32,000 bases of DNA from Erysipelotrichaceae bacterium MTC7 (lineage in GTDB: Bacteria > Bacillota_I > Bacilli_A > Erysipelotrichales > Erysipelotrichaceae), in NCBI GenBank assembly GCA_001695645.1, contig LVZN01000002.1:52417-84416 (forward strand), in the 5' to 3' direction. The translations under genes were made by a program, and so were the position numbers. Shown piece after piece: positions 6,417 through 32,000 of this stretch (position 1 is the first letter of the stretch; every line of letters starts with the position of its first letter). The notes under the pieces are model-generated. The model ran no database searches and was not told the DNA's origin. It saw only the letters and a list, made by a program, of their open reading frames with translations.

Positions 6417-6429
6417 GGAGGACAAGGCT

Positions 6430-7846: not shown

Positions 7847-8181
7847 TGCCTATGACACACGAAGAAATCGTAACCATGCTGGAGGAGGCAAACCTTCCTC
7901 TTGCGTATGACCATTTTGCGGAGGGCGAAAGTCCCGATCCGCCTTTTTTAATCTTCCTATTTCCGGGGACGGACAATATGTTCGCCGACAACAAGGTGTG
8001 GCAGAAGATCAACCAGCTGAACATCGAACTGTACACGGACGAAAAGTCGCCGGAAACGGAAGAAACAATCGAGGACATCCTGGACTCCTACGAGATCCCT
8101 TATGAGAAGTCGGAGTACTGGATCGAATCGGAAAAGATGTATGAAGTGCTTTATCAAACAGAAATTTTAGGAGGTAACTGA
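7846..8181 (+). CDS. hypothetical neck/tail-terminator-position protein
   Basis: TGATG overlap with the upstream gene. The call rests on its position between the gp10-like gene and the major tail gene. No family recognised. Confidence 0.5.
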   Translation: MPMTHEEIVTMLEEANLPLAYDHFAEGESPDPPFLIFLFPGTDNMFADNKVWQKINQLNIELYTDEKSPETEETIEDILDSYEIPYEKSEYWIESEKMYEVLYQTEILGGN

Positions 8182-8183
8182 CT

Positions 8184-8765: not shown

Positions 8766-8779
8766 GGAGGGCTTAAATC

Positions 8780-9157
8780 ATGGCAGTAACAAAAACAATC
8801 GCCGTTGACGGCAAGGACGTGACTTTCCGTGCGTCTGCCGCCATCCCGCGGCTTTACAGAAACAAGTTCCACAGGGACATTTACCGTGACCTGAACGAAC
8901 TTCAGAAAGGGATCGATGAGAACAGTGCCGGGGAATCCAACCTCGACACTTTTTCTTTGGAACTTTTCGAGAACATCGCGTGGCTCATGGCGAGGCACGC
9001 CGACTCCGCCGTTCCTGACTCTCCCGAAGAGTGGCTGGACGGCTTCAACACCTTTTCCATCTACGAGGTGCTGCCGCAGATCATCGAACTGTGGGGCATC
9101 AACACGCAGCAGCAGGTCGAGTCTAAAAAAAACGTCCCGCCACGGAAAGGGAGATGA
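8780..9157 (+). CDS. tail assembly chaperone (G-like)
   Basis: 125 aa, placed between the major tail and tape measure genes. RBS AAGGAGG. It carries a slippery run near its 3' end. Confidence 0.75.
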   Translation: MAVTKTIAVDGKDVTFRASAAIPRLYRNKFHRDIYRDLNELQKGIDENSAGESNLDTFSLELFENIAWLMARHADSAVPDSPEEWLDGFNTFSIYEVLPQIIELWGINTQQQVESKKNVPPRKGR

Positions 9158-9318
9158 CAACGCCGCTGTTCCTGCTCCGGTGTGTGCAGATCGGGCTTTC
9201 CATCTCGGAACTCGATCTGCTCACCATCGGGACGGTGAACGATATGTATGCGGAAATGTCAAATGATGACTGGGACTACGCGCAGGTCGCTACCCAGGAG
9301 CAGATGGACAGATTTTAA
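8780..9318 (+). CDS. tail assembly chaperone GT-like frameshift fusion product
   Basis: The -1 frame after the slippery site reads KRPATEREMTTPLFLLRCVQIGLSISELDLLTIGTVNDMYAEMSNDDWDYAQVATQEQMDRF and ends 18 nt before the tape measure start. This is the canonical G/GT arrangement. Confidence 0.6.
9127..9133 (+). other. -1 programmed frameshift slippery heptamer A_AAA_AAC
   Basis: In the zero frame of 8780..9157 the codons are AAA(9128) AAC(9131), preceded by A9127. The -1 frame is open from 9127 to stop 9316-9318. Confidence 0.6.
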
Positions 9319-9336
9319 CGAAGGGAGGCAGGACGC

Positions 9337-12300: not shown

Positions 12301-12450
12301 GTGCAGGGCGCGGCTCTGTCGCTTTCGGGTGACCAGCCGCTTATCAACATACAGGAAATGAGCGTAAGGAGCGATGATGATATTCGCAAGATTTCTCAGC
12401 AACTGAACACGCTCTTAAATGCTGGCAGACGAGCGAAAGGATATATCTAA
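9337..12450 (+). CDS. tail tape measure protein
   Basis: 1037 aa. It has an N-terminal coiled coil, the TMP core (TAFSATECAEALNYLALAGY), central transmembrane-like segments, and a long array of 11-residue repeats. Confidence 0.9.
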   Translation: MADRIKGITVEIGGDTTGLSKALSGVNKEIKSTQTQLKDVNKLLKLDPTNTTLLQQKQQLLKTAISETKDKLTQLKSVQDQMDEGLKNGTVTQQQYDAWQREIVETENELKNLQKELDNSSTAMTKLTAAGEKLQSVGDTISGVGKKMMPVTLGITALGTAAVSTAANFESAMSQVQATMGITKDSMSEVDGQSVNTMDALTDLAKQMGETTAFSATECAEALNYLALAGYDTQEMVDTLPTVLNLAAAGGMELATASDMVTDAMSALGMETSDADVMVDQMAKTASSTNTSVEQLGEGILKIGATARSVKGGTAELNTALGILANNGIKGAEGGTHLRNVILSLQEGCENGAIAVGDMSVQVYDAEGNMRSLNDILGDMNTAMDGMTAEEKNNIISKIFNKTDLASVNALLANTGDTWDDLQNSITNSAGAAQQMADTQLDNLQGQLTLLKSALEGLAISIGQILMPYIKSIVSHIQSFVDWLNNLDERTQKIIVTVALVVAAIGPVLIIVGKVISSVGTIMTIIPKVTSAMSTVKTAMMGLNATMAANPIGLVIAAITALVAAFIYLWNTNEDFRNAITEIWNGLVEKFKAFTQGIVDKLNELGFSFSDIGEVIKAVWDGLCSILAPMFEGAFQQIANVLSYAMDLILNIVDIFVGIFTGDWDQALSGIKGIFTSTWDFICNTFTNITNTLKGILDAFLGLFGTSWDAVWTSIKDFFVGVWNGISSFFTGIVTGIQNTATTVFTASSNFFTSIWNGIKTFFETIWNAIKTAVTAYFTAYQTVITTVMNAIQTVISTIWNAIKTVITTVLNAIHTAITTAWNAVKTTTSTVFNAVKSVVTSVWNGIKTAVMNVVNTMKSGISNGFNAIKSTVSNIVNGIKNTISNVFNTIWSTVSGIVNKLKSVFNFSWSLPKIKLPHFSITGSFSLNPPSIPHFSVDWYKKAMSGGMILKDATIFGQSGNTLLGGGEAGDEAVVGVSSLRSMIQDAVQGAALSLSGDQPLINIQEMSVRSDDDIRKISQQLNTLLNAGRRAKGYI
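11446..12060 (+). repeat. 33-nt (11-aa) tandem periodicity inside the tape measure gene
   Basis: Units read (W/F/V/L)N(A/G)I(K/Q/H)T..T..., for example WNAIKTVITTV / LNAIHTAITTA / WNAVKTTTSTV / FNAVKSVVTSV / WNGIKTAVMNV. At least 12 consecutive units are visible. Confidence 0.8.
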
Positions 12451-12451
12451 T

Positions 12452-13231
12452 ATGGGATTTTCATTTAACGGTACGACTTCCCGGTCTATGGGGATCGCCA
12501 CAAGGATTACAACTGAAAACCGTATGCCGGACTTACGTAACAATACCATCACCATGCCGGGGCATGAGGGCGTTTTCGACTTCGGGGAAACCATCGGCGA
12601 GAGGAAGATACAGATTTCCTGCTTTATCCCTCCGGGGAAAAGCGATGAGGACTTCCTCTCGCTGAAGGACGATATCATAGCGTGGCTGAACCCGGACAGT
12701 GGGCTGTGCCCGCTTGTCCTTGACAAGGAGCCGGGGCGAGTGTATTCCGCAAGGCTGAACGAGGGCTTCTCCTTCGACAAGGCGGTGAGGAATTCCTGCA
12801 CCTTTGACCTGACCTTCCTATGTCCCGATCCATACGCCTATGCAGCCACGGACGAGGCATACGATATCGGGAGCGTGGGAACGCATACGGTTTCCCGCTC
12901 CCTTGGGAACGCTTACTCCCTGCCGGTATACTCGCTGACGGGAGTGATCCCCTCCGGCACGGACACATACATCACGATAACCACGAATGACAGCGAGTTG
13001 AAGATCGTAGGGAAACTTTCTGCCGGAGAAACGCTGGTCATCGACTCGGCTCTCATGACGGCAAAGGTAGTAGACACAAACGGCGATACGCTCCGAAATG
13101 GTCTGCCGCTTTTGTCGGAACTTAATTTTCCTGCTTTGGACGTGGGAGAAAATACGGTCACGGTGGCTGTTTCCGGCAGTACGGTGACCTTTACGGAACT
13201 TCAAATATCGGCGAGGAGCCGCTGGAGGTGA
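12452..13231 (+). CDS. distal tail protein (Dit, siphovirus tail component)
   Basis: The inner ATG 12452 lies 1 nt after the TMP stop. MGFSFNGTTSRSMGI...ITMPGHEGVFDFGE is typical of the Sipho_tail family. Confidence 0.8.
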   Translation: MGFSFNGTTSRSMGIATRITTENRMPDLRNNTITMPGHEGVFDFGETIGERKIQISCFIPPGKSDEDFLSLKDDIIAWLNPDSGLCPLVLDKEPGRVYSARLNEGFSFDKAVRNSCTFDLTFLCPDPYAYAATDEAYDIGSVGTHTVSRSLGNAYSLPVYSLTGVIPSGTDTYITITTNDSELKIVGKLSAGETLVIDSALMTAKVVDTNGDTLRNGLPLLSELNFPALDVGENTVTVAVSGSTVTFTELQISARSRWR

Positions 13232-13237
13232 TTTTGT

Positions 13238-15781
13238 ATGGCTTTAAAAAATACGATGAACACGCAGGATGCCTTTACCGGGCAATTCCCCACATCGTGG
13301 GGAAAGGACGGACTGTGGCGCTTCAATGAATCTGAACCGGATGCGAACACCTGCACGGCGGACTCCTCCGGGAACGGACGCGACGCCTATATTAACAAGT
13401 GGAGCGGTACGACTGCCGATTTTAAGACAGGGCATCTCGGTAATTACTTTCAAATGAACATCAACAATCCGTCCTCGGAGCAGACCTATCTGCGTGTATC
13501 CAATGACGGCACGATGTTCTCGGATATCGGTGAGAGGATCGTGGTCGGCGGCTGGATGAAGCCCACCACTTATTCCGTGGGCAACACATACACGCCGCTC
13601 TTATCCACGAGAGCGGGAACGGGCAATCCGATCTTTTACCTGTCCCTTATCCGTGGAAAGCCGAGACTGATGCTCTACAATTCTTCCGGCTCTCTGATAT
13701 TAGATACGTCGGTCACTCCATCGTTCAATCTGGAAAATGCCAAGTGGTACTTCATCGCGGCTGTGATTGAGCCGGATAGCAAGAGAGCCTGGTATGTACT
13801 CGGCAGCAGGGAAAGCGGCGCGGTGTGGAAATCATCCGCATTGACCTTCACGGGTGAACTGAACCGTTCTTGTACGGCAGACCTTATATGGGGAATGCTG
13901 AACAGTTCCTACTGGTACGCAGGCGGCTTTGACGACTGGTTCCTGGACTGCAATTCGGATCTGACCACTGACGATATCGCCGAGTGGTTTTTGAAATCCC
14001 TTTCTGCCAATGGTGCGGACACGGATTCTGATGTGGACGGTCTGACCACAGAAGATTCGGTCACGCTCAAAGCAACGGGCGGCGTCTATCCCGAAAGCGG
14101 TGTGCTAATCACAGCCGCCACGGAGTGCGGGATAACAGGCACGAGCAGGGTTTCTGTCAAGGCGGAGACGTCTCCGGGCGTGACATCCGTTTCGCTGGTC
14201 GAGACATCGACATCGGATGACCTCGCCACCTGGACGGACTGGATTTCCATTGGTACGGGCGGAGCATTGCAGTCTCCGTCAAAGAAGTACATTCGGTACC
14301 GCATCACACTTTCCACCACGAATACGGCGAGGACACCGGTGCTGACGGCAATAAGCCTGTATGACAATCCGAAACCGCTGTATTCGCAGCTTGGCTATGC
14401 ACGTCCCGTTATCCTTGGAGATGATGATACCGCAGAGGCTGTGCTTGAGAACGCCTACGACATCATTGTCACCAGCGAGATCAACGGCATCGATACGCTG
14501 GAATTCAAGCTGCCCTTCAAGGACAGCAAGCGTGAGTATGTGGAGAACGAAAAGCAGGTGCGCATCGTATCCGATACCTATCGCATCCGTACCGTAACCG
14601 ATGATAAGGACGAGAGCGGCAAGGCGATCACTTCCGTGTATGCGGAGGCGGCGTTTTATGACCTGTCCTTCTCCGCCAAGAAGGAAGAGAACACCTTCAC
14701 GGCGGATACCGCTGATGTTCCGATGGCGTATGCACTGCAGGGTACGGAATGGGAAGTCGGCGTGGTGAACGTCAGCACCAAGAGGACATGGACATCGACC
14801 GAGAATAACGCGCTCTCTATTCTCCGCCATGTGCAGAACATCCACGGCGGCGACCTGATCTTTGATAACGCCAACAAGCTGGTGAACCTTCTGACCTTCT
14901 CCGGCACAGACTCCGGGGCATTGTTTTGCTACAGGAAGAACATGAAATCCATCCAGAGGGTGATCGACACCACGAGCCTTATCACAAGGCTCTATGCTGT
15001 CGGTGCGGACGGCATAACCTTTGCCAATATCAATGACGGAAAGCCCTATGTGGAGGACTTTACCTATACGAGTGAGGTGCGCATCAAGACGCTGGACTGC
15101 TCGAATTTCACGAACCCTTATCAGATGCTGGAGTTTGCCAATATGCGCCTTGCGGACTATGCGGCGCCGCGAATTTCCTATGTGCTGAAAGCAATGGACT
15201 TGACCGTGCTGACGGGCTACGAGCATGAGGCATGGAACCTTGGTGATACGGTCATGGTGGTGGATGAGGATTTAGACCTTTCCATCAAGACAAGGATCGT
15301 CCGCCGGGAGTATAACCTGCAGGAACCCTGGAACACGGTACTGGAACTTTCCACAACGCTCCGTGAACTTGGCGATTCCACGTCTCAGTGGGACGCCGCC
15401 GCAGATGTCCTTGAGGGTGCAAACTACATCGACAACCAGCAGCTGCAGAACTTCGTGCCGTTCAACCATCTGAAAAACTCCCGTGGCGATGATGGCTTTG
15501 CCTATTGGACGAATTCCGGCTTTTCGGTGGATGGAGATAACGGCGTGACAGGCACGGCCTCCTTCAAGTGCGAGGGCGCGTACAACGCCACCAAGTACAT
15601 GGAGCAGACTGTCACTCCCTCCAACCGTGACAGCTATACTTTCTCGGCTCAGATCGCTACGGAGAACCTCAGTCTCGGCAGCAGCGGACAGGTCGGCGTG
15701 GAGATCGTGATCGAGTACGAGGACGGCAGCACGGAAACGAGGACGATAGACCTCATATCCTCCTCAGATACGGAGGTGTGA
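13238..15781 (+). CDS. tail-associated (Tal / prophage-tail endopeptidase-type) protein with an N-terminal LamG-like extension and a C-terminal CBM-like domain
   Basis: The segment from about aa 380 (PLYSQLGYARPVILGDDD...INGIDTLEFKLPFKDSKREYVENEKQVRIVSDTYRIRTV) matches the N-terminal region of phage minor structural/Tal proteins. Residues 1-378 look like a concanavalin/LamG-type jelly roll plus a beta-sandwich. The last ~90 aa look CBM-like. Confidence 0.8.
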   Translation: MALKNTMNTQDAFTGQFPTSWGKDGLWRFNESEPDANTCTADSSGNGRDAYINKWSGTTADFKTGHLGNYFQMNINNPSSEQTYLRVSNDGTMFSDIGERIVVGGWMKPTTYSVGNTYTPLLSTRAGTGNPIFYLSLIRGKPRLMLYNSSGSLILDTSVTPSFNLENAKWYFIAAVIEPDSKRAWYVLGSRESGAVWKSSALTFTGELNRSCTADLIWGMLNSSYWYAGGFDDWFLDCNSDLTTDDIAEWFLKSLSANGADTDSDVDGLTTEDSVTLKATGGVYPESGVLITAATECGITGTSRVSVKAETSPGVTSVSLVETSTSDDLATWTDWISIGTGGALQSPSKKYIRYRITLSTTNTARTPVLTAISLYDNPKPLYSQLGYARPVILGDDDTAEAVLENAYDIIVTSEINGIDTLEFKLPFKDSKREYVENEKQVRIVSDTYRIRTVTDDKDESGKAITSVYAEAAFYDLSFSAKKEENTFTADTADVPMAYALQGTEWEVGVVNVSTKRTWTSTENNALSILRHVQNIHGGDLIFDNANKLVNLLTFSGTDSGALFCYRKNMKSIQRVIDTTSLITRLYAVGADGITFANINDGKPYVEDFTYTSEVRIKTLDCSNFTNPYQMLEFANMRLADYAAPRISYVLKAMDLTVLTGYEHEAWNLGDTVMVVDEDLDLSIKTRIVRREYNLQEPWNTVLELSTTLRELGDSTSQWDAAADVLEGANYIDNQQLQNFVPFNHLKNSRGDDGFAYWTNSGFSVDGDNGVTGTASFKCEGAYNATKYMEQTVTPSNRDSYTFSAQIATENLSLGSSGQVGVEIVIEYEDGSTETRTIDLISSSDTEV

Positions 15782-21660: not shown

Positions 21661-22080
21661 ATGGATGGATTTCAGAAGGAACAGATCAGGAACCTTCGGA
21701 GAGAAGGTATGAGTTATGCGAAAATCGCAAAGCAGGTCGATGTTTCCAGGGATGCGGTCATATCCTTTTGCCGCAGGAACGGTCTGCAGGAAATAAAAAA
21801 GCCGATTCCGGTTGTGAATACCGATGCAGCAGATGTCTGCCGTGAGTGTGGAAAGCCACTGATCCAGGTGGACGGGATGAAACGGCGCGTGTTCTGCTCA
21901 AAAGAATGCCGCGTTAAGTGGTGGAAGGAGCATCCGGAACGGCTGAATCAAAAGGCAGTGTATCAGTACACGTGTCCGCACTGCGGTAAGCCATTCTCTG
22001 CCTATGGCAACTCCAAGCGGAAGTATTGTTCTCATGCCTGCTATATCTCTGATCGATTCGGAGGTGGAGCGGATGAATGA
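21661..22080 (+). CDS. HTH plus double zinc-ribbon protein (candidate regulator / recombination accessory factor)
   Basis: RBS AGGAGG. The N-terminal HTH-like segment is QIRNLRREGMSYAKIAKQVDVSRDAVISFCRRNG. Two Cys4 clusters follow (CRECG...CSKEC and CPHCG...CSHAC). It lies directly upstream of the recombinases. Confidence 0.7.
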   Translation: MDGFQKEQIRNLRREGMSYAKIAKQVDVSRDAVISFCRRNGLQEIKKPIPVVNTDAADVCRECGKPLIQVDGMKRRVFCSKECRVKWWKEHPERLNQKAVYQYTCPHCGKPFSAYGNSKRKYCSHACYISDRFGGGADE

Positions 22081-22249
22081 GGCGGAATTTCATGCGGAGA
22101 AAATGTACCTTCTGTGCCTTGGAACGGCGAAAGCGATGCTTAAGAAGGGCGTCATTTCAGAAGAAGAGTTCACTAAAATTGATACAATGCTGCTCGAAAA
22201 ATACAAGCCAACTTTGTCTACATTATTATCGGGAAAACCCTTGATATAA
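22073..22249 (+). CDS. small helical protein (58 aa), SHOCT-like by recollection
   Basis: The inner ATG 22073 follows GGAGGTGGAG. An ATGAATGA overlap joins it to the upstream gene. The sequence is MNEAEFHAEKMYLLCLGTAKAMLKKGVISEEEFTKIDTMLLEKYKPTLSTLLSGKPLI. Confidence 0.5.
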   Translation: MNEAEFHAEKMYLLCLGTAKAMLKKGVISEEEFTKIDTMLLEKYKPTLSTLLSGKPLI

Positions 22250-22293: not shown

Positions 22294-24201
22294 ATGCCGA
22301 AAATCACGAGAATCAAGCCGGGTATCAAGGCACTCCCGGCAAAGAAAAAAGTGGCGGCCTACGCAAGGGTCTCCAAGGACACCGAGCGGCTGCTTCACTC
22401 CGTTTCCGCACAGGTAAGCTATTACAGCGATCTCATCCAGAAGAATCCGGAATGGGAATATGCAGGCGTGTACGCTGACTCCGGCATAACAGGCACTCTC
22501 GTCGCAGGACGCAGTGAGTTCGGACGGTTGCTGGAGGACTGCGAGGCTGGCAAGATTGACATCATCCTTTGCAAGTCGATTTCCAGGTTTGCGAGAAACA
22601 CGGTCGATCTGCTGAATACGGTCAGACATTTGAAGGACATCGGTGTGGAGGTTCGGTTCGAGAAAGAGCAGATCAATTCGATGAGCGGGGATGGAGAACT
22701 GATGCTTTCCATCCTCGCTTCTTTTGCCCAGGAAGAGAGCCGGAGCATTTCCGAAAATGTGAAATGGGGCATCCACAAGCGGTTCAAAAACGGAGAGATC
22801 GGTGCGGCAAACAAGCACATCCTTGGCTACCGGTACGATGATGAACTGAAAAAGTATGTCATCATTCCCGAAGAAGCCGAGGCGGTCAGATGGATGTTCC
22901 AGATGTACATCGATGGCGTTACCCTGCGGGACATTGCGGATAGCATGAACAATGCGGGCATCCGTACCACGCTGGGAAATGACTTTCAGGAAGCCTCAGT
23001 ACGGCAGCTGATTTTCAACGAGGTCTATGCCGGGGATATCCGCCGACAGAAATGCTACATCGAAGATCCCATCACCAAAAGGAAGGTGCCAAATCGCGGA
23101 GAGCTGCCGCAGTATTACATGGCAGACAGCCACGAGGCTATCATCGACCGCGACACCTACGCAAAGGTAAAAGCGGAAATGGAGCGACGGGCTTCGCTGC
23201 TGAATCCGACATATTGCTTTACGGGAAAGTTCAAATGCGCCGTATGCGGGGCGAACTTTACGAGGAAGAAAGGCAGGGTCAGGGGCAAGGAATATGTGGA
23301 CTGGATCTGCCGCAGCAAAAAAGAGCCTGGAGTCACCTGCAAGAGCCACAATTATCCTGAACATAAGCTGATGGATATTTGCGCCGAACTGATGGAAACG
23401 GACGGATTCGATGAAGAAGCGTTCGAGAGGAATGTTAAGCAGATCACCTCGCTTGCGGACGGCAGTATTGAGATGCAGCTTTATGGCGGCGAGGTCAGAC
23501 AGTGGCAGATGCCGCCAAAGCCGGTCAAGCCGAAGAAAATAAAGCCGGAGAGCAAGCGTCCAAGAAACCTGTTCGACGGGAAAATCTTCTGCGGCAAGTG
23601 TGGCAGACGGTTTGGCAGAGCCATCAGCGATACAACGGACGGCGGTCACCTTTACTGGTACTGCCGAGCAAAGAGCAATCACGGAATCACCTGCGACAGT
23701 GTCAACTATCCCGATTCAGAGATCAGGGACATCTTCTGCCGGGTCATGGGGAAGAAAACCTTTGACGAGGATTACTTCACAAAAACGGTCGACCGCATGG
23801 TGGTTCAAGCCTCCGGCAGTATTGACTTTCATCTGAAGGACGGCACGGTCAAGACATATGAGACGCTCAAGCTGCGGAGCAACAGGCACGAGACCACATC
23901 CACGGATGAGTTCACCGGGATGATTCGGTGCGCCTGCTGCGGAAACATTTACCACAGATACTGCGGATACGGAAAGTACGTTTACTGGCGATGCTCCGGC
24001 AAGCACAAGGTCAGGACGGAATGCAACGGGCAGGACCTGGCGGATTTCAACATCCGTAAGGTTTCCGCCTACATTCTCGGCATGGATGATTTTGACGGGA
24101 AAGCATTCACGGAGCAGATCGACCACATCACAGCATTGGAAGACGGAAGTCTGGAATACTTTTTTAAAGACAGGAGGGCAAAAAAGTGGCAAAGAACGTA
24201 A
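22294..24201 (+). CDS. large serine recombinase 1 (635 aa) with a triplicated zinc-ribbon module
   Basis: The catalytic N-terminus reads KKVAAYARVSKD ... YADSGITGT ... SISRFARNT ... LASFAQEESRSISENVKWG. A recombinase domain follows, then three ~95-aa Cys4 modules. Confidence 0.9.
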   Translation: MPKITRIKPGIKALPAKKKVAAYARVSKDTERLLHSVSAQVSYYSDLIQKNPEWEYAGVYADSGITGTLVAGRSEFGRLLEDCEAGKIDIILCKSISRFARNTVDLLNTVRHLKDIGVEVRFEKEQINSMSGDGELMLSILASFAQEESRSISENVKWGIHKRFKNGEIGAANKHILGYRYDDELKKYVIIPEEAEAVRWMFQMYIDGVTLRDIADSMNNAGIRTTLGNDFQEASVRQLIFNEVYAGDIRRQKCYIEDPITKRKVPNRGELPQYYMADSHEAIIDRDTYAKVKAEMERRASLLNPTYCFTGKFKCAVCGANFTRKKGRVRGKEYVDWICRSKKEPGVTCKSHNYPEHKLMDICAELMETDGFDEEAFERNVKQITSLADGSIEMQLYGGEVRQWQMPPKPVKPKKIKPESKRPRNLFDGKIFCGKCGRRFGRAISDTTDGGHLYWYCRAKSNHGITCDSVNYPDSEIRDIFCRVMGKKTFDEDYFTKTVDRMVVQASGSIDFHLKDGTVKTYETLKLRSNRHETTSTDEFTGMIRCACCGNIYHRYCGYGKYVYWRCSGKHKVRTECNGQDLADFNIRKVSAYILGMDDFDGKAFTEQIDHITALEDGSLEYFFKDRRAKKWQRT

Positions 24202-25766
24202 TCACAATACCCGCCACCATCAGCAAGTTCACAGCCTCTCCCCTCGGCAGCAGGAAAAAGCGGAAGGTTGCCGCCTATGCCCGCGTTTCAACGGACAGGG
24301 ACGAACAGCTGACGAGCTACGAGGCACAGGTGGACTACTACACGAATTACATCAAAGGGCGCGAGGATTGGGAGTTTGTCGCCGTGTATGCTGACGAAGG
24401 CATAACCGGCTGCAATACGACGCATAGAGACGGTTTCAATTCTATGGTCGAGGATGCCCTGGCGGGAAGAATCGACCTCATCGTGACAAAAAGCGTGAGC
24501 CGCTTCGCAAGGAACACGGTAGACAGCCTTACGACCATCCGAAAGCTGAAGGAGAACGGCACGGAGTGCTATTTCGAGAAGGAGAACATCTGGACATTTG
24601 ACGGCAAGGGCGAATTGCTCCTGACCATCATGTCAAGCCTTGCACAGGAAGAGAGCCGCTCCATTTCGGAGAACTGCACCTGGGGACAGAGAAAGCGTTT
24701 CCAGGACGGCAAGGTCACGGTGCCGTTCAAGCGTTTCCTCGGATACGACCGGGGCGAGGACGGCAACCTGGTGGTAAACGAGGAGCAGGCGGTCATCGTC
24801 CGCAGAATCTACGGGCTTTTCCTGCAGGGAAAAACACCGTATGCGATTGCGCGGCAGCTCACCGAGGAGGGCATCCCGACGCCGGGCGGTAAAAAGAACT
24901 GGGGCAAGAAAACGGTCGAGAGCATACTTACCAACGAAAAGTACAAAGGCGACGCCCTGCTCCAGAAGGTCTACACTACGGACTTCCTGACAAAGAAAAA
25001 GAAGAAGAACGAGGGCGAGGTGCCGCAATACTATGTGGAAGGAAACCATGAAGCGATTATCCCTCCCGCACAGTTTGACAGGGTGCAGAAGGAGATGCAG
25101 AGACGGTTCGGTGATACGGACCGGCACGGCTGCGTGAGCATTTTCTCCAGCAAAATCCGATGCGGTGACTGCGGCGGCTTTTACGGCTCGAAGGTGTGGC
25201 ACTCCAATGACAAGTACAGAAAAGTCATATGGCGGTGCAATCACAAGTACGATGACGGAAAGAACTGCTCCACGCCTCATTTGGACGAGGACACCATCAA
25301 GGCATTGTACCTCAAAGCCCTGCGGATTCTCGGAGAGGAGCGGGACGAGATCATCGCCACCTTTGAAGCCATCAAGGACAAGATGTACGATACCACGGAG
25401 CTGGAGACAGAACAGGCAGCCTTGCAACAGGAGGTCATGGTGGTAACGGAACTGGTCGAGCAGTGCATCAGCGAGAACGCCCATGTTGCACAGAATCAGA
25501 AGGATTACCAAAAGAAGTATGATGCTCTCTCCGAACGCTATGACAGGACAAAGGAACGGCTGGATAAGGTCAGCGGCAGGATCATGGAGCGTCAGGCAAA
25601 GCGGGAAATGATCGAGGCGTTCCTTCATGACCTGGCAGAGATGGATGAGGATGTACAGGAATTCACGGATGACCTTTGGTTCAACCTTCTCGACCATGTG
25701 ACGGTTTTCTCGAAGAAGGATGTGCGCTTCACCTTCAAGAACGGGACGGAGATCAGTGTGAAATAA
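24186..25766 (+). CDS. large serine recombinase 2 (526 aa)
   Basis: GTG start lies 8 nt after GGAGGG and overlaps recombinase 1 by 16 nt. The catalytic region reads VAAYARVSTDRDEQ ... YADEGITG ... SVSRFARNT. It has a single Zn ribbon (CGDCGG...WRCNHKY...C), a long coiled-coil segment, and a DUF4368-like C-terminus. Confidence 0.9.
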   Translation: MAKNVITIPATISKFTASPLGSRKKRKVAAYARVSTDRDEQLTSYEAQVDYYTNYIKGREDWEFVAVYADEGITGCNTTHRDGFNSMVEDALAGRIDLIVTKSVSRFARNTVDSLTTIRKLKENGTECYFEKENIWTFDGKGELLLTIMSSLAQEESRSISENCTWGQRKRFQDGKVTVPFKRFLGYDRGEDGNLVVNEEQAVIVRRIYGLFLQGKTPYAIARQLTEEGIPTPGGKKNWGKKTVESILTNEKYKGDALLQKVYTTDFLTKKKKKNEGEVPQYYVEGNHEAIIPPAQFDRVQKEMQRRFGDTDRHGCVSIFSSKIRCGDCGGFYGSKVWHSNDKYRKVIWRCNHKYDDGKNCSTPHLDEDTIKALYLKALRILGEERDEIIATFEAIKDKMYDTTELETEQAALQQEVMVVTELVEQCISENAHVAQNQKDYQKKYDALSERYDRTKERLDKVSGRIMERQAKREMIEAFLHDLAEMDEDVQEFTDDLWFNLLDHVTVFSKKDVRFTFKNGTEISVK

Positions 25767-25781
25767 CGGCAGCAGAACACG

Positions 25782-25820
25782 GCCGGACACCTTGCGGATT
25801 GCGGGATGTCCGGCTTTCTC
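25782..25820 (+). terminator. terminator-like hairpin after recombinase 2
   Basis: Stem GCCGGACA / TGTCCGGC (8 bp), a 17-nt loop, then TTTCTC. The weak T-tract limits confidence to moderate. Confidence 0.45.
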
Positions 25821-25822
25821 TA

Positions 25823-25954
25823 TGCAAAATTAAAATGTACGGCAACAGCAGAGCAAGGCAAAATTATAAAGTATGGCAAAATCAAAAAGTGTAGGGCAAA
25901 GTTAAAAGGTTCAAGGCAAAATCAAAAGGTATAGGGGCAAAATGTAATTGTATC
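25823..25954 (+). repeat. iteron-like array of ~18-21 bp direct repeats
   Basis: Five clear units are visible: GGCAAAATTATAAAGTAT (25857), GGCAAAATCAAAAAGTGTAG (25875), GGCAAAGTTAAAAGGTTCAA (25895), GGCAAAATCAAAAGGTATAG (25915) and GGGCAAAATGTAATTGTATC (25935). Weaker units lie at 25823 and 25841. Confidence 0.8.
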
Positions 25955-25957
25955 GCT

Positions 25958-27325
25958 TTGGGATACTACTTAGATGATGGTATCTCCGGTACAAACACTA
26001 AAAAGCGTGACGAATTTAATCGTATGATTGCAGAGTGTATGGATGGTAACATCGACATGGTTATTACTAAATCCATCAGCCGATTTGCACGTAACACCCT
26101 AGACTGCCTTCAATATATTAGACAGCTCAAAGATAAGAACATATCCGTCTACTTTGAAAAAGAGAATATCAACACCATGGATGCCAAAGGTGAGGTTTTG
26201 CTGACTATTATGGCATCTTTGGCACAACAGGAAAGCCAGAGCCTTTCACAAAACGTTAAGCTTGGGCTACAGTACCGATACCAACAAGGAAAGGTGCAGG
26301 TCAACCATAAGCGGTTTATGGGCTACACGAAAGATGAAGATGGAAATTTAATTATTGTCTCCGAAGAAGCTGAGATTATCAAACGCATCTACCGAGAATA
26401 CCTTGAAGGTCAGAGTCTAGTAGGCATTGGTCGAGGCCTTGAAAAGGATGGTATTTTAACAGCAGCAGGAAAACCAAGATGGCGACCGGAATCGGTTAAG
26501 AAGATCCTCCAAAATGAAAAATACATCGGAGATGCCCTTCTGCAAAAGACTGTCACAGTAGATTTTCTAACCAAGAAACGAGTTAAGAATGAAGGTCATC
26601 TTCCCCAGTATTATGTTGAAAATAGCCATGAGGCGATTATTCCTAAAGAGTTATTTTTGCAGGTGCAGGAAGAGATTCATCGAAGAAGCAATATCTACAC
26701 AGGAGAAGGCAAGAACAAACGAATTTATAGTAGCAAGTATGCTTTAAGTGCCATCACCTTCTGTGGAGATTGTGGCGATATTTATAGGAGAACCTATTGG
26801 AATATTCATGGTAGAAAAGAATTTGTCTGGCGATGCGTGACTAGAATCGAGCAAGGTCCTGAAGTTTGTAAGAACCGAACCGTAAAAGAAGATAAACTCT
26901 ATGGTGCTGTAATGACCGCAATTAATAAGCTACTTGCAGGTGGCAACAACATGATAAAGACCCTGGAAGAGAACATTCATGCTGTGATTGGTGAAACGAC
27001 AGAATACCAAATTTCAGAGATTAACAACTTACTGGAGGAAAAGCAAAAAGAACTTATCAAGCTGGCGAACAAGGGTCAAGACTATGAACACCTAGCAGAT
27101 GAGATTGATGAGCTGAGAGACAAGCGACAGATCCTTTTAGTAGAAGATGCCTCCCTCAGTGGCGAGAACGAGCGAATCAATGAGCTGATTGAATTTATCC
27201 GCAAGAACAAATTCCGCACCTTAGAATATGATGATAAGCTTGTAAGGAAGATAATCCAGAGCGTTACAGTCTATGAAGACCACTTCGTCATAGCCTTCAA
27301 ATCTGGCATCGAAATGGAAATATGA
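25958..27325 (+). pseudogene. 5'-truncated large serine recombinase (AT-rich; lacks the catalytic-Ser segment)
   Basis: The ORF begins inside the catalytic domain at [19 protein letters not shown], equivalent to residues ~66 onward of recombinase 2. No YARVS-type nucleophile motif is present, and the only start is an artefactual TTG. The rest is intact ([23 protein letters not shown], Zn ribbon CGDCG...WRC, coiled coil, DUF4368-like end). Confidence 0.8.
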
Positions 27326-27342
27326 AAACCAGAAGTAAATAG

Positions 27343-27378
27343 CCCATGACTCTACAGTAGAGTTGTGGGTTTTCTTTT
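27343..27378 (+). terminator. rho-independent terminator
   Basis: Stem CCCATGACTCTA / TAGAGTTGTGGG (12 bp with two G-U pairs), loop CAG, then TTTTCTTTT. Confidence 0.6.
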
Positions 27379-27409
27379 GCTTGTGATTATAATAATATTT
27401 TAATAACTA

Positions 27410-27438
27410 TTGTATTTATCAACCAAATGGTTTATAAT
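27410..27438 (+). promoter_or_regulatory. sigma-A type promoter for the XRE/resistance operon
   Basis: The -35 TTGTAT is at 27410-27415, followed by a 17-nt spacer and a perfect TATAAT at 27433-27438. This lies 28 nt upstream of the XRE start. Confidence 0.55.
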
Positions 27439-27466
27439 ATTCTTAGCGTAAACTTGGAGGTGCTGT

Positions 27467-27691
27467 ATGACTACGGCAGAAATGATTAAAGAACTGTGTG
27501 AGCAAATGAATATAAGTGTTTCCGAACTTGCTAGACGTATTGGCCAGACTCCACAGAATTTCAATAAAAAATTACAACGAGAAACAGTAACCTTGGATGA
27601 GTTGAAGGCCATTGCTGATGTGCTAGGTGTCAAGTTTGTGCAGGCATTTATTTTACCAGATGGAGAAGAAATAAAAATATCTAACGAATAA
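27467..27691 (+). CDS. XRE-family helix-turn-helix transcriptional regulator (74 aa)
   Basis: RBS GGAGGTG. The HTH segment ISVSELARRIGQTPQNFNKKLQRETVTLDELKAIADVLGV is typical of the XRE family. Confidence 0.8.
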   Translation: MTTAEMIKELCEQMNISVSELARRIGQTPQNFNKKLQRETVTLDELKAIADVLGVKFVQAFILPDGEEIKISNE

Positions 27692-27705
27692 AGGAGGATG
27701 TTTAT

Positions 27706-28575
27706 ATGGTAGGTAATATTATTAAATCAGTAGCAGAGAAATTATCCTCTCTGTCTTATATAGAAGGTATTGTTTTAGGTGGTTCACGTGCAAGGGGCAC
27801 CCATACAGAGGATTCGGATATAGATATCGGCATCTATTACAATTCAGAATCATTTGACATAAATACTATTAATCAATTCGCTACAAAGCTGGATGATGAG
27901 CATAGAAATAACCTTGTTGTACCTCCCGGAGCATGGGGTGATTGGATTAATGGCGGCGGATGGTTAGTCATAAACGGGTATCATGTGGATTTAATTTTAC
28001 GTGATATTAAACGTGTGGAACAAATAATGAAAGATACAGAGCACGGAATTGTTACTGCCAATTATCAGACTGGGCATCCCCATGGTTATATTAGTGCAAT
28101 GTATCGAGGAGAATTAGCGATTAGCAAAATACTATATGCTAAGAATGAAAGCTTATGCGAATTAAAAAAACAGGCAGAAACTTATCCCAATGCTTTGCAG
28201 AAAAGTTTAGTTAACTTTTTTATGTTTGAAGCAGGGTTCTCTTTAATGTTTGTAAAAGCAAATTCGGGAACAGACGATAAATATTATATTGCGGGTCATG
28301 TTTTTCGTATAGTTTCATGTTTAAATCAAGTGTTATTTGCATGTAATAATGCTTATTGTATCAACGAAAAGAAAGCTATAAAACTGCTTGAAACTTTTGA
28401 ACATAAACCTGAAAAATATACCGAGAAGGTAAATCATATTTTTGAAGTACTCGGTATCTCACTTTTTGAATGCTACGACATGACCGAGAAGCTTTATAAT
28501 GAAGTGAATGAAATTGTATCGGAGATAAATAACTTTTTAAACGAGGAGAGTTCAGATGAAAGAAAACAAATATGA
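27706..28575 (+). CDS. nucleotidyltransferase-domain protein (NTase N-terminus with helical C-terminal domain), substrate unknown
   Basis: RBS AAGGAGG. The pol-beta-type NTase motif is GGSRARGTHTEDSDIDIGIY. By recollection it is the orf found upstream of the methyltransferase and aadE in Tn5405/pRE25-type clusters. Confidence 0.8.
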   Translation: MVGNIIKSVAEKLSSLSYIEGIVLGGSRARGTHTEDSDIDIGIYYNSESFDINTINQFATKLDDEHRNNLVVPPGAWGDWINGGGWLVINGYHVDLILRDIKRVEQIMKDTEHGIVTANYQTGHPHGYISAMYRGELAISKILYAKNESLCELKKQAETYPNALQKSLVNFFMFEAGFSLMFVKANSGTDDKYYIAGHVFRIVSCLNQVLFACNNAYCINEKKAIKLLETFEHKPEKYTEKVNHIFEVLGISLFECYDMTEKLYNEVNEIVSEINNFLNEESSDERKQI

Positions 28576-29290
28576 TGATAATATATTTTTTCAAAAATAC
28601 AGTCAAATGAGTCGCTCGCAGAAAGGACTGGCTGGTGCGGGAGAATGGGAGACTTTGAAAAAGATGCTACCTGATTTTAAGGGTAAGCGTGTGCTTGATT
28701 TAGGATGCGGCTATGGATGGCACTGTATATATGCGATGGAAAACGGTGCTTCCTCTGTAGTAGGTGTTGATATTTCTCATAAAATGCTCGAAGTAGCAAA
28801 AGGAAAAACCCATTTTCCACAGATTGAATATGAATGCTGTGCCATAGAAGATGTGGATTTCCCAGAGGAGAGCTTTGATGTAATACTAAGTTCGCTTGCG
28901 TTTCATTATGTAGCAGACTATGAGAATTTAATAAAAAAGATATATAGGATGCTGAAGGCTGGTGGCAATTTAGTTTTTACAGTTGAACATCCTGTTTTTA
29001 CTGCTCATGGAACACAAGACTGGTATTATAACGAAAAAGGAGAAATACTGCATTTCCCGGTGGACAATTATTATTATGAGGGCAAACGGACAGCTATGTT
29101 TTTGGAAGAAAAGGTTACAAAATATCATAGAACACTGACCACATATCTAAATACACTGCTTTCAAATAGTTTTATAATAAATCAGATTGTGGAGCCACAG
29201 CCGCCAGAGAACATGATGGATATTCCGGGGATGGCGGATGAAATGCGACGCCCAATGATGCTGATTGTATCGGCAAAAAAGAAGATGTAA
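28556..29290 (+). CDS. class I SAM-dependent methyltransferase
   Basis: SAM-binding motif I is VLDLGCGYGW, with downstream FDVILSSLAFHYV and LKAGGNLVFTVEHP. It overlaps the upstream gene by 20 nt. Confidence 0.85.
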   Translation: MKENKYDDNIFFQKYSQMSRSQKGLAGAGEWETLKKMLPDFKGKRVLDLGCGYGWHCIYAMENGASSVVGVDISHKMLEVAKGKTHFPQIEYECCAIEDVDFPEESFDVILSSLAFHYVADYENLIKKIYRMLKAGGNLVFTVEHPVFTAHGTQDWYYNEKGEILHFPVDNYYYEGKRTAMFLEEKVTKYHRTLTTYLNTLLSNSFIINQIVEPQPPENMMDIPGMADEMRRPMMLIVSAKKKM

Positions 29291-29322
29291 TAATATAGAA
29301 AAAATAAACGAGGAGTATGTAA

Positions 29323-30186
29323 ATGAGATCAGAAAAAGAAATGATGGATTTAGTACTTTCTTTAGCAGAACAGGATGAACGTATTCGAATTGTGACCCTT
29401 GAGGGGTCACGCGCAAATATTAATATACCTAAAGATGAATTTCAGGATTATGATATTACATATTTTGTAAGTGATATAGAACCGTTTATATCTAATGATG
29501 ACTGGCTTAATCAATTTGGGAATATAATAATGATGCAAAAGCCGGAGGATATGGAATTATTCCCACCTGAAGAAAAGGGATTTTCCTATCTTATGCTATT
29601 TGATGATTACAATAAAATTGATCTTACCTTATTGCCCTTGGAAGAGTTAGATAATTACCTAAAGGGCGATAAATTAATAAAGGTTCTAATTGATAAAGAT
29701 TGTAGAATTAAAAGGGACATAGTTCCGACTGATATAGATTATCATGTAAGAAAGCCAAGCGCAAGGGAGTATGATGATTGCTGCAATGAATTTTGGAATG
29801 TAACACCTTATGTTATTAAAGGATTGTGCCGCAAAGAGATACTGTTTGCAATCGATCATCTGAACCAGATTCTACGGTTTGAACTACTTAGGATGATGTC
29901 GTGGAAGGTTGGGATAAAGACAGAATTTTCATTAAGTGTTGGGAAAAATTATAAGTATATTAACAAATACATTGATGAAGATCTATGGAATAGATTATTA
30001 TCTACATATCGCATGGATTCCTATGAAAATATTTGGAAGTCATTATTTATATGCCACCAATTGTTCAGGGAAGTGTCCAAAGAGGTAGCAGAACTACTGG
30101 GGTTTGATTATCCAGAGTATGGTAAGAACATAACAAGATATACCGAGGACATGTATAAAAAATATGTTGAAAATGACTATTTTTAA
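29323..30186 (+). CDS. aadE: aminoglycoside 6-nucleotidyltransferase ANT(6)-I (streptomycin resistance)
   Basis: The N-terminal ~190 aa (MRSEKEMMDLVLSLAEQDERIRIVTLEGSRANINIPKDEFQDYDITYFVSD...) matches my recollection of AadE/ANT(6)-Ia almost verbatim. Synteny with the methyltransferase upstream and apt-spw downstream supports the call. Confidence 0.9.
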   Translation: MRSEKEMMDLVLSLAEQDERIRIVTLEGSRANINIPKDEFQDYDITYFVSDIEPFISNDDWLNQFGNIIMMQKPEDMELFPPEEKGFSYLMLFDDYNKIDLTLLPLEELDNYLKGDKLIKVLIDKDCRIKRDIVPTDIDYHVRKPSAREYDDCCNEFWNVTPYVIKGLCRKEILFAIDHLNQILRFELLRMMSWKVGIKTEFSLSVGKNYKYINKYIDEDLWNRLLSTYRMDSYENIWKSLFICHQLFREVSKEVAELLGFDYPEYGKNITRYTEDMYKKYVENDYF

Positions 30187-30229
30187 AGATTAGCAAAGAT
30201 TATTAACCATAAGCAAGGGGTGTAAATGT

Positions 30230-30757
30230 ATGGAAAGTACTGATGTTATAAATGAAATTAGAGGTATATTACCTCGTAACTCAATTGGAAAATATGATTT
30301 ACTAACTATTTTTACACATAAAACCGTTTTTGATAAAATTGTAAAAGTACTATCATTGGATTTTCAAAATAAAGTAGATTATGTGGCTGCCCCAGAAGCA
30401 ATTGGATGGATACTAGGCACTGCCATAGCCAAAGAACTTGGAGTGGGGTTTATTGGAGTAAGAAAAGGTGATAAGCTGCCATACGCAAAAGAAGAGATTA
30501 TTTCGACACATTTTACCGACTATTCAGGTCAAGATAAAAGCTTTGAAATATCTAAGAGTTCTATTGTGAGGAACAAAAGAGTTTTGATTGTAGATGATTG
30601 GATAGAGACAGGTTCTCAAATGAAGGCTTTAATAGCTTTGTTAGAGAAATTGGATTGCAGCATTATTGGGTTGGCTACTATTGGGATTGATATAAATGAG
30701 GTTACTCAAAAATGGATAGACAGCAGTTTTGTAGCTTATATTGGCTCAAACATATAA
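30230..30757 (+). CDS. apt: adenine phosphoribosyltransferase-like (type I PRTase) protein
   Basis: The PRPP-binding motif is VLIVDDWIETGSQ. The size is 175 aa. Its position between aadE and spw matches the published aadE-apt-spw cluster. Confidence 0.8.
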   Translation: MESTDVINEIRGILPRNSIGKYDLLTIFTHKTVFDKIVKVLSLDFQNKVDYVAAPEAIGWILGTAIAKELGVGFIGVRKGDKLPYAKEEIISTHFTDYSGQDKSFEISKSSIVRNKRVLIVDDWIETGSQMKALIALLEKLDCSIIGLATIGIDINEVTQKWIDSSFVAYIGSNI

Positions 30758-30888
30758 TAAACCGAAAGAAAATCTTGAATCAAAATTTTGGATGGCGTTA
30801 ATTTACAATACAACGAAAGATGTTTACTCTTTTTTTATAAATTTTAAGAGGCGTTAAAAAACAGTTTTCAGACGAAAGGAGATCGAAG

Positions 30889-31677
30889 TTGAGTATAGAT
30901 TTAAGTAACAAAAAAATTCCGAAAGAAGCAATTCAAGCATTAAAAACTATAGCGGAACTACTTGATAATATGTTAATTGGGGTGTATTTGTATGGTTCGG
31001 CAGTAATGGGTGGTTTACGTATGAATAGCGATGTAGATATTTTGGTAATAACAAATCAAAGTTTATCTGAAAAAACTCGAAGGAATCTTACAAATAGGTT
31101 AATGCTTATATCTGGGAAAATAGGAAACATAAAAGATATGAGGCCTCTTGAAGTTACGGTCATAAATCAAAAGGATATTGTCCCTTGGCATTTCCCCCCC
31201 AAATATGAATTTATGTATGGCGAGTGGCTAAGAGAGCAGTTTGAAAAGGGAGAAATTCCTGAGTCGACTTATGATCCGGATTTAGCAATACTTTTAGCAC
31301 AACTAAGAAAAAATAGTATTAACCTTTTGGGACCAAAGGCAACAGAAGTAATTGAGCCTGTGCCAATGACAGATATTCGAAAAGCAATTAAAGAATCGTT
31401 GCCCGGGTTGATAACTAGCATTAAAGGTGACGAACGCAATGTGATTTTAACTTTAGCCAGAATGTGGGTGACAGCATCTACTGGTGAAATCAGATCAAAA
31501 GATCTGGCAGCTGAATGGGCAATACCTCAATTACCTTATGAGCATGCCATTTTACTTGACAAAGCAAGAAAGGCTTATCTAGGAGGGTATATTGATAAGT
31601 GGAAAGGAATGGATTCTGAGGTGACTGAACTCGTTAATAATATGAAGAAGTCTATAGAGTCTTCCCTTAATCTCTAA
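30889..31677 (+). CDS. spw: spectinomycin 9-O-nucleotidyltransferase ANT(9)
   Basis: TTG start lies 8 nt after AGGAG. It shows clear collinear similarity to Tn554 Aad9/Spc as I recall it (GVYLYGSAV.GGLR..SDVDILV, RPLEVTVIN, YDPDLAILLAQ.RKNSI.L.GP, IKGDERNVILTLARMW). The spw assignment rests on synteny. Confidence 0.85.
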   Translation: MSIDLSNKKIPKEAIQALKTIAELLDNMLIGVYLYGSAVMGGLRMNSDVDILVITNQSLSEKTRRNLTNRLMLISGKIGNIKDMRPLEVTVINQKDIVPWHFPPKYEFMYGEWLREQFEKGEIPESTYDPDLAILLAQLRKNSINLLGPKATEVIEPVPMTDIRKAIKESLPGLITSIKGDERNVILTLARMWVTASTGEIRSKDLAAEWAIPQLPYEHAILLDKARKAYLGGYIDKWKGMDSEVTELVNNMKKSIESSLNL

Positions 31678-31689
31678 AAGGCTGGTGTT

Positions 31690-31887
31690 GAGAATTCCAT
31701 TGATAGGTTCTCTCATACCGAAATTTCTTAAAATGGTCAAAAACCGCTGGATATGTTCCCGTCTACCGATAGTTCCAAAAATGCTGCTGATATGTTTCCA
31801 CAGACGGGCAAAGTAATATGACATCAATGCCATCAACTCGAGCCATGTGGAAAGTGTTGTTGTCCTAAAAACAATCAAGTAAATCAT
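31690..31887 (-). other. unassigned minus-strand ORF fragment (possible gene remnant)
   Basis: This is the only open frame in the 31.68-31.89 kb gap, part of track ORF 31579..31887. It has no SD that I can see and no recognised family. Its 3' part overlaps spw and is certainly not coding. Confidence 0.15.
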
Positions 31888-31941
31888 TTAGATAAAGTAA
31901 AGGAAGGGGCTGTGACACTTAGTACAGCTTCAAATCATAAA

Positions 31942-31980
31942 AATAACGCCTAAACTCGTAAGAGAATAGGCGTTATTTTT
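31942..31980. terminator. strong hairpin terminator (potentially bidirectional), followed by an extended -10-like TGGTATAAT
   Basis: Perfect 11-bp stem AATAACGCCTA / TAGGCGTTATT with a 14-nt loop. The T-run on the + side and the A-run upstream give a T-run on the - side. TGGTATAAT lies at 31980-31988. Confidence 0.6.
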
Positions 31981-32000
31981 GGTATAATTTATTTGTGAAA

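Follow-up and report, generated by a model that had tools for sequence, protein, structure and literature searches.

Large serine integrases are widely used tools for genome engineering, and both the choice of the attP x attB combination of attachment (att) sites and the blocking of the reverse reaction are attributed to their coiled coil. For the paired Ccr recombinases, a mixed complex on asymmetric sites, credited to Misiura et al. in 2013, is reportedly the accepted model. In the case of lambda Int, only the phage arm carries reiterated arm-type sites beside the core. LI integrase deprived of its coiled coil loses intermolecular integration and is promiscuous within a molecule, and a recombinase without a coiled coil is thus expected to need a partner or some other selectivity device (PMC3783163). 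Triplets of serine integrase genes in integrative and conjugative elements (ICEs) of Streptococcus and Clostridia insert inside genes, sometimes those of other elements (e.g. traG), and generate repeats of 2-8 bp (Ambroset et al. 2016, PMC4701971). Finally, the TnpX/TndX-like DUF4368 recombinases of Clostridia possess unusual C-terminal regions and use many different target genes (Durrant et al. 2022, PMC10083194). Here, we describe a computational analysis of Rec1, a large serine recombinase encoded at the end of a prophage in Erysipelotrichaceae bacterium MTC7 (contig LVZN01000002.1, positions 52,417 to 84,416, forward strand; "the window" denotes this whole stretch of 32,000 nt). Rec1 belongs to a known kind of enzyme, of which it is an uncharacterised variant. 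We consider it somewhat better than an even bet, with a probability of roughly 0.55, that Rec1 and the adjacent Rec2 together make up a two-protein serine integrase, in which Rec2 provides the coiled coils and Rec1, the subunit without one, provides extra DNA anchoring.

The features on which this reading depends are given below in window positions.

22294..24201, forward strand: Rec1, a 635-residue large serine recombinase without a coiled coil (analysed with Pfam, AlphaFold2 and Foldseek)
23218..23508, forward strand: module R1 of Rec1, residues 309-405; a zinc ribbon, two short helices and three beta strands
23509..23571, forward strand: linker between R1 and R2, basic and rich in Lys, Pro and Arg, MPPKPVKPKKIKPESKRPRNL; disordered in the AlphaFold2 model
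23572..23862, forward strand: module R2, residues 427-523; the added middle module
23908..24192, forward strand: module R3, residues 539-633
24186..25766, forward strand: Rec2, a 526-residue canonical large serine recombinase with a GTG start at 24186

Pfam searches with whole Rec1 identified a Resolvase domain (PF00239; residues 20-168, 110 bits), a Recombinase domain (PF07508; residues 192-299, 75.9 bits) and three separate stretches matching Zn_ribbon_recom (PF13408; E 8e-26). Rec1 also contains the YARVS nucleophile motif. When the three segments were scanned singly they scored 41.9 bits (23218-23508), 41.8 bits (23572-23862) and 33.3 bits (23908-24192), so that each module passes the Zn_ribbon_recom gathering cut-off of 25.3 bits on its own. 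The modules are about 97 residues long, align with one another without significant gaps at 35% and 32% identity, and share four invariant cysteines (C7, C10, C31 and C41). Local alignments between modules score 19-30 standard deviations above those of shuffled sequences, and none of 500 shuffles scored as high. An earlier note, made from the DNA sequence alone, had proposed three tandem zinc-ribbon copies in Rec1; these results bear it out, and a hidden Markov model built from the repeats, which matches residues 309-405, 427-523 and 540-633, shows that its module coordinates were exact. Its further description of the modules as DUF4368-like is unsupported: PF14287 did not match whole Rec1, Rec2 or Rec3 (the third recombinase of the window, described below) at E<=0.1, and when each module and the tail of Rec2 were scanned separately there was no match up to E 10 either.

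The structural comparisons place Rec1 among the large serine integrases. Its best Foldseek matches are the SPbeta, Bxb1, phiC31 and LI integrases (E 1e-14 to 1e-8); the top structures are 9y66, 9dxh, 9iu2, 9tep and 4kis, and the matches to large serine recombinases span approximately 380-450 columns. A sequence search of the C-terminal region of Rec1 against the PDB returned no significant match to any solved structure. Rec1 therefore has three of the features that define a large serine recombinase, the catalytic, recombinase and zinc-ribbon domains, and lacks the fourth, the coiled coil.

Comparison with relatives that have two modules indicates which unit is the additional one. R1 is orthologous to the first module of these proteins and R3 to their second and last; R2 has no orthologue in them. 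R2 is nevertheless the best conserved of the three, with 60-77% identity among the three-module lineages, which argues for a function of, or selection on, this module. All 12 module cysteines are invariant or at least 90% conserved among Rec1 homologues down to 36% identity. The linker between R1 and R2 falls below 50 in predicted local distance difference test (pLDDT) score at residues 412-421, and homologues retain a consensus KRP within it.

The AlphaFold2 model of Rec1 has a mean pLDDT of 76.9, with most 10-residue blocks across the repeats at about 70-93. It folds each module alike: the zinc-ribbon strands are followed by a short helix, by helices of 11 and 7 residues and by three strands. 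The longest helix anywhere in residues 305-635 is about 12 residues. As modelled, Rec1 has no coiled coil, in agreement with what the earlier note had read from the sequence. Rec2, a paralogue with 42% identity to Rec1 across the first ~350 residues, holds one zinc ribbon at residues 319-380, followed by a helical coiled-coil region at ~381-494 (window ~25326-25667). Its AlphaFold2 model, built from a two-sequence alignment, has a mean pLDDT of 45.6 and reaches 62-88 in the helical stretch, and only its helices and tail were used: long helices at 368-490, then a C-terminal helix and a three-strand tail as in the Rec1 modules. Weak matches of the SMC/spectrin type cover Rec2 residues 384-491. 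Rec3 is 42% identical to Rec2 over its whole length, the coiled-coil region included; the insert that the note had assigned to both Rec2 and Rec3 is thus present in each. Furthermore, deleting residues ~385-488 from Rec2 gives a construct with which R2 aligns colinearly and against which the three modules reach z 9-15. To judge from these alignments, each Rec1 module corresponds to the zinc-ribbon domain and C-terminal tail of Rec2 minus its coiled coil of ~110 residues.

Rec1-type and Rec2-type genes occur together. Among 160 related loci from viral and genome collections we counted 117 distinct Rec1-Rec2 pairs; gene order is fixed, the estimated overlap is ~16 nt in 99 of the 117, and YARVS is kept in all Rec2 proteins and, apart from a few conservative variants, in every Rec1. 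No Rec1-type gene without a downstream Rec2-type gene was found among loci with sufficient downstream sequence. The window itself has the 16-nt overlap that had been noted before, from the Rec2 GTG at 24186 to the Rec1 stop at 24201, and a strong ribosome-binding site, AGGAGGG, lies 8 nt 5' of that GTG, inside the end of Rec1. This co-occurrence, the overlap and the retained nucleophile motifs support the functional half of the note's suggestion that the two proteins are a pair like CcrA/CcrB; orthology to CcrA and CcrB fails on the NCBIfam scores given at the end of this text.

The triple module is one form within this family rather than its rule. Rec1 carries two modules in 84 of the 117 pairs, three in 27 and one in 6, so that the three-module architecture singled out by the note recurs but the two-module form is the commonest; full-length representatives number 30, 8 and 3 for two, three and one modules, respectively. 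A search with the C-terminal 335 residues of Rec1 against 1.84 billion representative proteins gave just 407 matches at E<=1e-3 (109 at E<=1e-10), which indicates a limited clade. More than 120 independent full-length homologues of 632-635 residues were recovered from several sources. The hosts are gut and rumen Bacillota, including Lachnospiraceae, Oscillospiraceae, Ruminococcus, Selenomonas, Acidaminococcus and Pilibacter. GenBank phage records contain six distant relatives only, all from uncultivated gut phages and annotated as hypothetical protein or DNA invertase, and our literature search found no characterised family member and no account of tandem zinc ribbons in serine recombinases. 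The note had allowed that this might be a common, already characterised subfamily with standard att sites; the family proves fairly common in gut and rumen metagenomes, no characterised member was found, and its att site appears not to be standard.

Two observations on distribution stand apart. In Acidaminococcus hominis (locus L161, 737-8500) two Rec1-Rec2 pairs lie in tandem on the same strand, with open reading frames starting at 737 and 2509 and then at 5312 and 6931; the alignment of the second Rec1 begins at the first residue of its stop-to-stop frame, and its N-terminus may be partly missing. Rec1 copies 92-95% identical to that of the window (L087-L091, L098) occur in bins of different families: Ruminococcus, Gallacutalibacter, Solobacterium, Lachnospiraceae and unclassified Bacillota. 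This spread reflects either a broad host range of the phage or its carrier element, or mis-binned contigs.

Two small genes precede Rec1.

21661..22080, forward strand: 139-residue accessory gene, with an N-terminal helix-turn-helix (HTH) and two CxxC zinc-ribbon motifs; first gene of the cassette
22073..22249, forward strand: 58-residue gene, SHOCT_2-like, overlapping the 139-residue gene by 8 nt; second gene of the cassette

The 139-residue protein has weak Pfam matches to GcrA, HTH_7 and YacG and matches phrog_2308 (function unknown) at E 1e-49; of the first 84 related loci, nearly all of those with enough upstream DNA have a homologue 5' of Rec1. The 58-residue protein matches phrog_2996 (function unknown) at E 2e-17, its product is named SHOCT_2 in L002 and L004, and almost every locus retains its gene 5' of Rec1. 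The two small genes are kept no less strictly than the recombinase pair. By gene order and conservation, the four genes constitute a conserved integration cassette, in which the 139-residue protein is a candidate directionality factor or arm-binding protein and the 58-residue protein is likewise a candidate.

The cassette lies 3' of the lysis genes, at the right end of a temperate prophage of the siphovirus type that fills the window from position 1 to ~25974. The following features mark this end.

25781..25822, forward strand: GC-rich hairpin with a T-run after Rec2, GGCCGGACA...TGTCCGGCTTTCTCT; a likely terminator, read by eye
25823..25956, forward strand: repeat array, six ~20-bp direct repeats with consensus GCAAAAT-N6-GT(AT) on one strand, on the phage side and adjoining the crossover
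25945..25992, forward strand: right junction (attR), with the phage half-site ATTGTATCGCTTTGGGATACTACTTAGA followed by the Asp-x-Gly-Ile-Ser-Gly codons of the target
25972..27325, forward strand: Rec3, the 3' part of a 520-residue serine recombinase gene from a different, low-GC element

The junction was defined from the intact gene on an Enterococcus faecium plasmid (L001 among the related loci, which carry L-numbers), from 15 metagenome contigs with the same phage arm and from related prophages. Beginning at 25972, the window shares 97% identity with Enterococcus plasmids, in which the recombinase gene is intact and the match starts 209 nt into it. Since phage-derived sequence extends to 25974 and identity to the target begins at 25972, the crossover dinucleotide is AG or GA within 25972-25974. 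GC content drops at the junction from ~0.54 to 0.35-0.41. Rec3 is missing ~70 N-terminal codons, including that for the catalytic serine, and its Resolvase match starts at profile position 37. The crossover thus lies inside the Asp codon (~codon 70) of the YxDxGxSG motif in the target serine recombinase gene, and insertion there removes the catalytic serine from that gene.

The same arrangement recurs throughout the family. In the close relatives L002, L007 and L087-L091 an identical arm runs to ...CTACTTAGA and is then joined, at the same codon, to different serine recombinase genes; in more distant relatives, including L004, L013 and L031, the junction likewise falls in a recombinase gene at that codon. 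About 45 related loci have a third recombinase reading frame whose homology to Rec2 begins at residue 63-70. The 29-nt phage arm was found in 15 metagenome contigs; in 13 of these it leads, at the Asp codon of YxDxGxSG, into a recombinase gene, a different one in each. In L185 (junction ~730) the arm is joined to a gene that does not encode a recombinase but ...DEEKSGTLKTG..., which resembles a pseudo-site mimicking DEGxSGT. These junctions indicate that members of this phage family insert at one codon in the serine recombinase genes of other mobile elements; our literature search found no paper on phages inserted in recombinase genes. That Rec3 might be the third member of a phage-borne triplet is ruled out by relatives with 92-97% identical Rec1, which carry different third genes cut at the same codon. 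The different third genes, the break in GC content and the 97% identity to Enterococcus plasmids together identify Rec3 as the integration target and not a phage gene.

Other junctions differ. In L175 (junction ~846) the arm is joined to AT-rich DNA that could be attP. L012 was considered as an attP and dropped, since its downstream DNA is without phage genes and matches no other locus. In a two-module group at 66-68% identity (L024 ~5800-9700, L026 ~11300-14900 and L022 ~13300) the junction follows GTTTACATTTC(C/G)G, and in two of these loci the flank is the end of another prophage in opposite orientation (recombinase, 130-138-residue accessory gene, endolysin and holin). To judge from these flanks, phages of this group seem to insert next to, or within, a resident prophage's recombinase module, and to do so at another position.

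The phage side of the junction is extended. The six repeats start at 25824, 25858, 25876, 25896, 25916 and 25937, at spacings of 34, 18, 20, 20 and 21 bp; the pattern matches six times in the whole window against 0.63 expected, and no shuffle gave six. The innermost repeat overlaps ATTGTATC, ~20-28 bp from the crossover, and at this distance known integrase half-sites are bound by the zinc-ribbon domain (geometry from PMC3783163). Related phages retain ATTGTATC and the core, with 2-8 outer repeats. L031 and L032 have identical Rec1 proteins, and their repeats differ only in a 5-bp spacer; AAAATC and GTAT are thus the constrained positions, which points to them as the positions that are read. 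In other lineages the outer arm, ~200 bp before the junction, is of another type, TGCAACC in L015, L016, L018, L037 and L039 and GAATACC palindromes in L036 and L133; one outer-arm type is phased at 10-11 bp and the other is palindromic and operator-like, and the inner ATTGTATC and core are retained in both. The earlier note had speculated that a triple DNA-binding module could read an extended or multipartite att site. An extended, multipartite phage-side arm exists, with its six repeats; neither repeat number nor repeat type follows the modules. We regard a reading of the extended att site by the extra modules as plausible but unproven.

The mechanism that we favor for the two-protein integrase is as follows. 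Rec1 and Rec2 would form mixed dimers or tetramers on asymmetric att sites, with one protein per half-site, as proposed for CcrA/CcrB, and both subunits would cleave DNA. We infer this heteromer from the conserved pairing of the genes. The coiled coils of Rec2 would single out attP x attB for synapsis and prevent attL x attR, and Rec1 would add DNA anchoring through its chain of modules and basic flexible linkers. R1 probably reads the conserved ATTGTATC subsite. In the weakest step of the scheme, R2 and R3 would most likely bind neighboring copies of the AAAAT-N6-GTAT subsite, on the same face of the helix, and binding of the array would mark the phage site as distinct from the target site.

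Several observations weigh against this scheme. The case for a heteromer is one of synteny only. The likeness between module tails and the Rec2 tail is weak, with z ~4 for R2 and R3 and none for R1. Repeat counts do not track module number, being 3-7 in three-module, 2-8 in two-module and 3-5 in one-module lineages, and the simple proposal of one DNA repeat per zinc-ribbon module was rejected on these uncorrelated counts. L016, with three modules, shares the TGCAACC outer arm with L037/L039, which have two, and yet identity between their Rec1 C-terminal regions is only 40%; in the same region L036 matches L037 at 84%, but its outer arm is of the GAATACC-palindrome type. It may thus be a different protein, such as the 139-residue HTH protein, that reads the outer arm. 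Finally, pattern scans of viral and metagenome contigs yielded attR junctions, the L185 pseudo-site and L175, and recovered neither P' nor attL; extension leftward from the window met phage replication and modification genes only, and att-site asymmetry is thus documented in part only.

The likeliest of the alternatives that we considered, although we think it rather improbable, is the following: Rec1 and Rec2 work as a pair, but the modules replace the coiled coil in some other way and the 139-residue protein, alone or with the 58-residue protein, binds the repeats as an architectural or directionality factor. The modules might then grip the partner duplex in trans in the course of synapsis, or dock the Rec2 coiled coil or a directionality factor. 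That array size is independent of module number, and that arrays are present in one-module lineages too, fits this alternative, as does the lack of co-variation, among the lineages compared, of outer-arm repeat type with either the Rec1 modules and C-terminal region or the Rec2 C-terminal region. The palindromes that make up the type C arm are characteristic of operators bound by dimeric HTH proteins, and the conservation of both small genes is as strict as that of the recombinases. The 139-residue protein itself is slightly more similar within arm types (64-85%) than between them (53-71%); this tracking of arm type is weak, as the ranges overlap and the co-variation is not significant. Against the alternative, the outer repeats of the main lineage, to which the window belongs, reiterate the innermost subsite at the zinc-ribbon position of known half-sites (PMC3783163), and there is no direct evidence that zinc-ribbon domains make protein contacts of the kind it invokes.

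A far-reaching extension of the two-protein scheme seems to us unlikely as a whole. It holds that the zinc-ribbon chain of a two-subunit integrase reads subsites confined to the phage arm, that arm binding, and not the coiled coils alone, sets site identity and directionality as in the tyrosine integrases, and that the enzyme has evolved to recognise DNA encoding YxDxGxSG, such that an entire phage family would insert into and inactivate the integrases of rival elements, antibiotic-resistance islands among them.

It is still more doubtful that the two recombinases act separately, with Rec2 alone integrating and excising the phage and Rec1 serving in excision only, in a second target specificity, in dimer resolution or in interference with the recombinase of a resident element. 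Rec2 does have every feature of an autonomous large serine integrase, its gene adjoins the att site, and each protein keeps its own catalytic motif; additionally, the LI coiled-coil deletion is still active intramolecularly (PMC3783163), so that an enzyme without a coiled coil could be a dedicated excisionase or resolvase. Separate action is hard to reconcile with the strict co-occurrence and fixed order in 117 distinct pairs, with the presence of a Rec2-type gene after every Rec1-type gene that has enough downstream sequence, with the ~16-nt overlap, which suggests translational coupling, and with the parallel divergence of Rec1 and Rec2. That the triple module is a functionless artefact of misassembly or gene decay, for which only the general misassembly risk of repeats speaks, can be set aside given the >120 independent full-length homologues, the conserved cysteines, the greater conservation of R2, and modules only 32-35% identical as protein, which an assembler cannot collapse or expand.

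The remainder of the window (25972-32000) is an antibiotic-resistance cluster with a GC content of 0.32-0.41 that is 97% identical to E. faecium and Enterococcus faecalis plasmids and adjoins the prophage of GC 0.54. Beyond Rec3 it comprises the following genes.

~27468-27692: HTH regulator
27706-28575: nucleotidyltransferase
28556-29290: methyltransferase
29323-30186: ant(6)-Ia
30230-30757: phosphoribosyltransferase
30889-31677: spw

On the E. faecium plasmid (L001, 1876-2790) two recombinase fragments of 166 and 139 residues lie 5' of the intact target recombinase, so that the resistance cluster contains what is left of its own multi-recombinase module. At the other end of the window, the leftmost protein (559-1035) is present in 308 collection blocks, which makes the phage very widespread. 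Left of the window start, as seen in L167 and L168 (1-9900), are an SNF2 helicase, an HNH nuclease, an S-adenosylmethionine synthetase-like gene, a ParB-methylase, a 712-residue cytosine methylase and an amidoligase.

The family is thus common in gut phages and yet uncharacterised, with an apparently unusual att site and an unusual target. In this naturally occurring and widely distributed system, with at least 117 distinct gene pairs from Bacillota of the gut and rumen, a subunit of the catalytic type that lacks the coiled coil and has one to three zinc-ribbon modules is always paired with a canonical one. The system raises the questions of what share of site selection is carried by extra DNA-binding modules and partner subunits, and of whether serine integrases can use arm-type sites. 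It is also a clear case of one mobile element targeting another, here a resistance island with ant(6)-Ia and spw. Automated surveys will misclassify such integrases as "multi-targeting".

Among described systems, the LI/A118, Bxb1, phiC31 and SPbeta integrases resemble Rec1 in having a resolvase domain with a serine nucleophile, a recombinase domain and a zinc-ribbon domain, in the position of the gene beside the att site at the prophage end, and in a crossover dinucleotide inside a gene. Unlike these phage integrases, Rec1 has no coiled coil in its zinc-ribbon domain, has three zinc-ribbon-plus-tail units instead of one, and is always accompanied by a second recombinase; its phage-side site has a direct-repeat array of ~130 bp, whereas known phage integrases use a simple attP of ~40-50 bp. 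Repeats confined to the phage arm are shared with lambda Int, and by analogy may provide a way to tell attP from attB. The two systems differ in enzyme family and chemistry, and binding of the repeats by the recombinase is only proposed here.

CcrA/CcrB of SCCmec are, like Rec1 and Rec2, encoded by two adjacent paralogous large serine recombinase genes. Rec1 scores 136.7 bits with the CcrB model and 61.9 with that of CcrA, and Rec2 124.5 and 52.8, far below the NCBIfam cut-offs of 900 (CcrB) and 700 (CcrA); membership was therefore rejected. Both proteins are closer to CcrB than to CcrA and orthologues of neither, and we retain the comparison as a functional analogy. The target here is ~codon 70 of serine recombinase genes and the carrier a tailed phage, whereas the Ccr target is the 3' end of rlmH (orfX). 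To our knowledge, no Ccr protein has tandem zinc ribbons.

The ICE triplets share with the window a row of paralogous serine integrase genes in the same orientation at the end of a mobile element of Firmicutes (PMC4701971). They consist of three intact integrase genes (E/M/I) of one element, whereas the third gene here is truncated, foreign and the disrupted target, and members with several zinc ribbons or without a coiled coil are not described in that study. The TnpX/TndX-like enzymes, lastly, have in common with the system of the window a large serine recombinase, an unusual C-terminal region and many target genes. They belong to a different clade, and Rec1 gave no DUF4368 match. The many targets of the phages described here all belong to one gene family and are cut at one conserved codon, which indicates motif-specific targeting rather than relaxed specificity.

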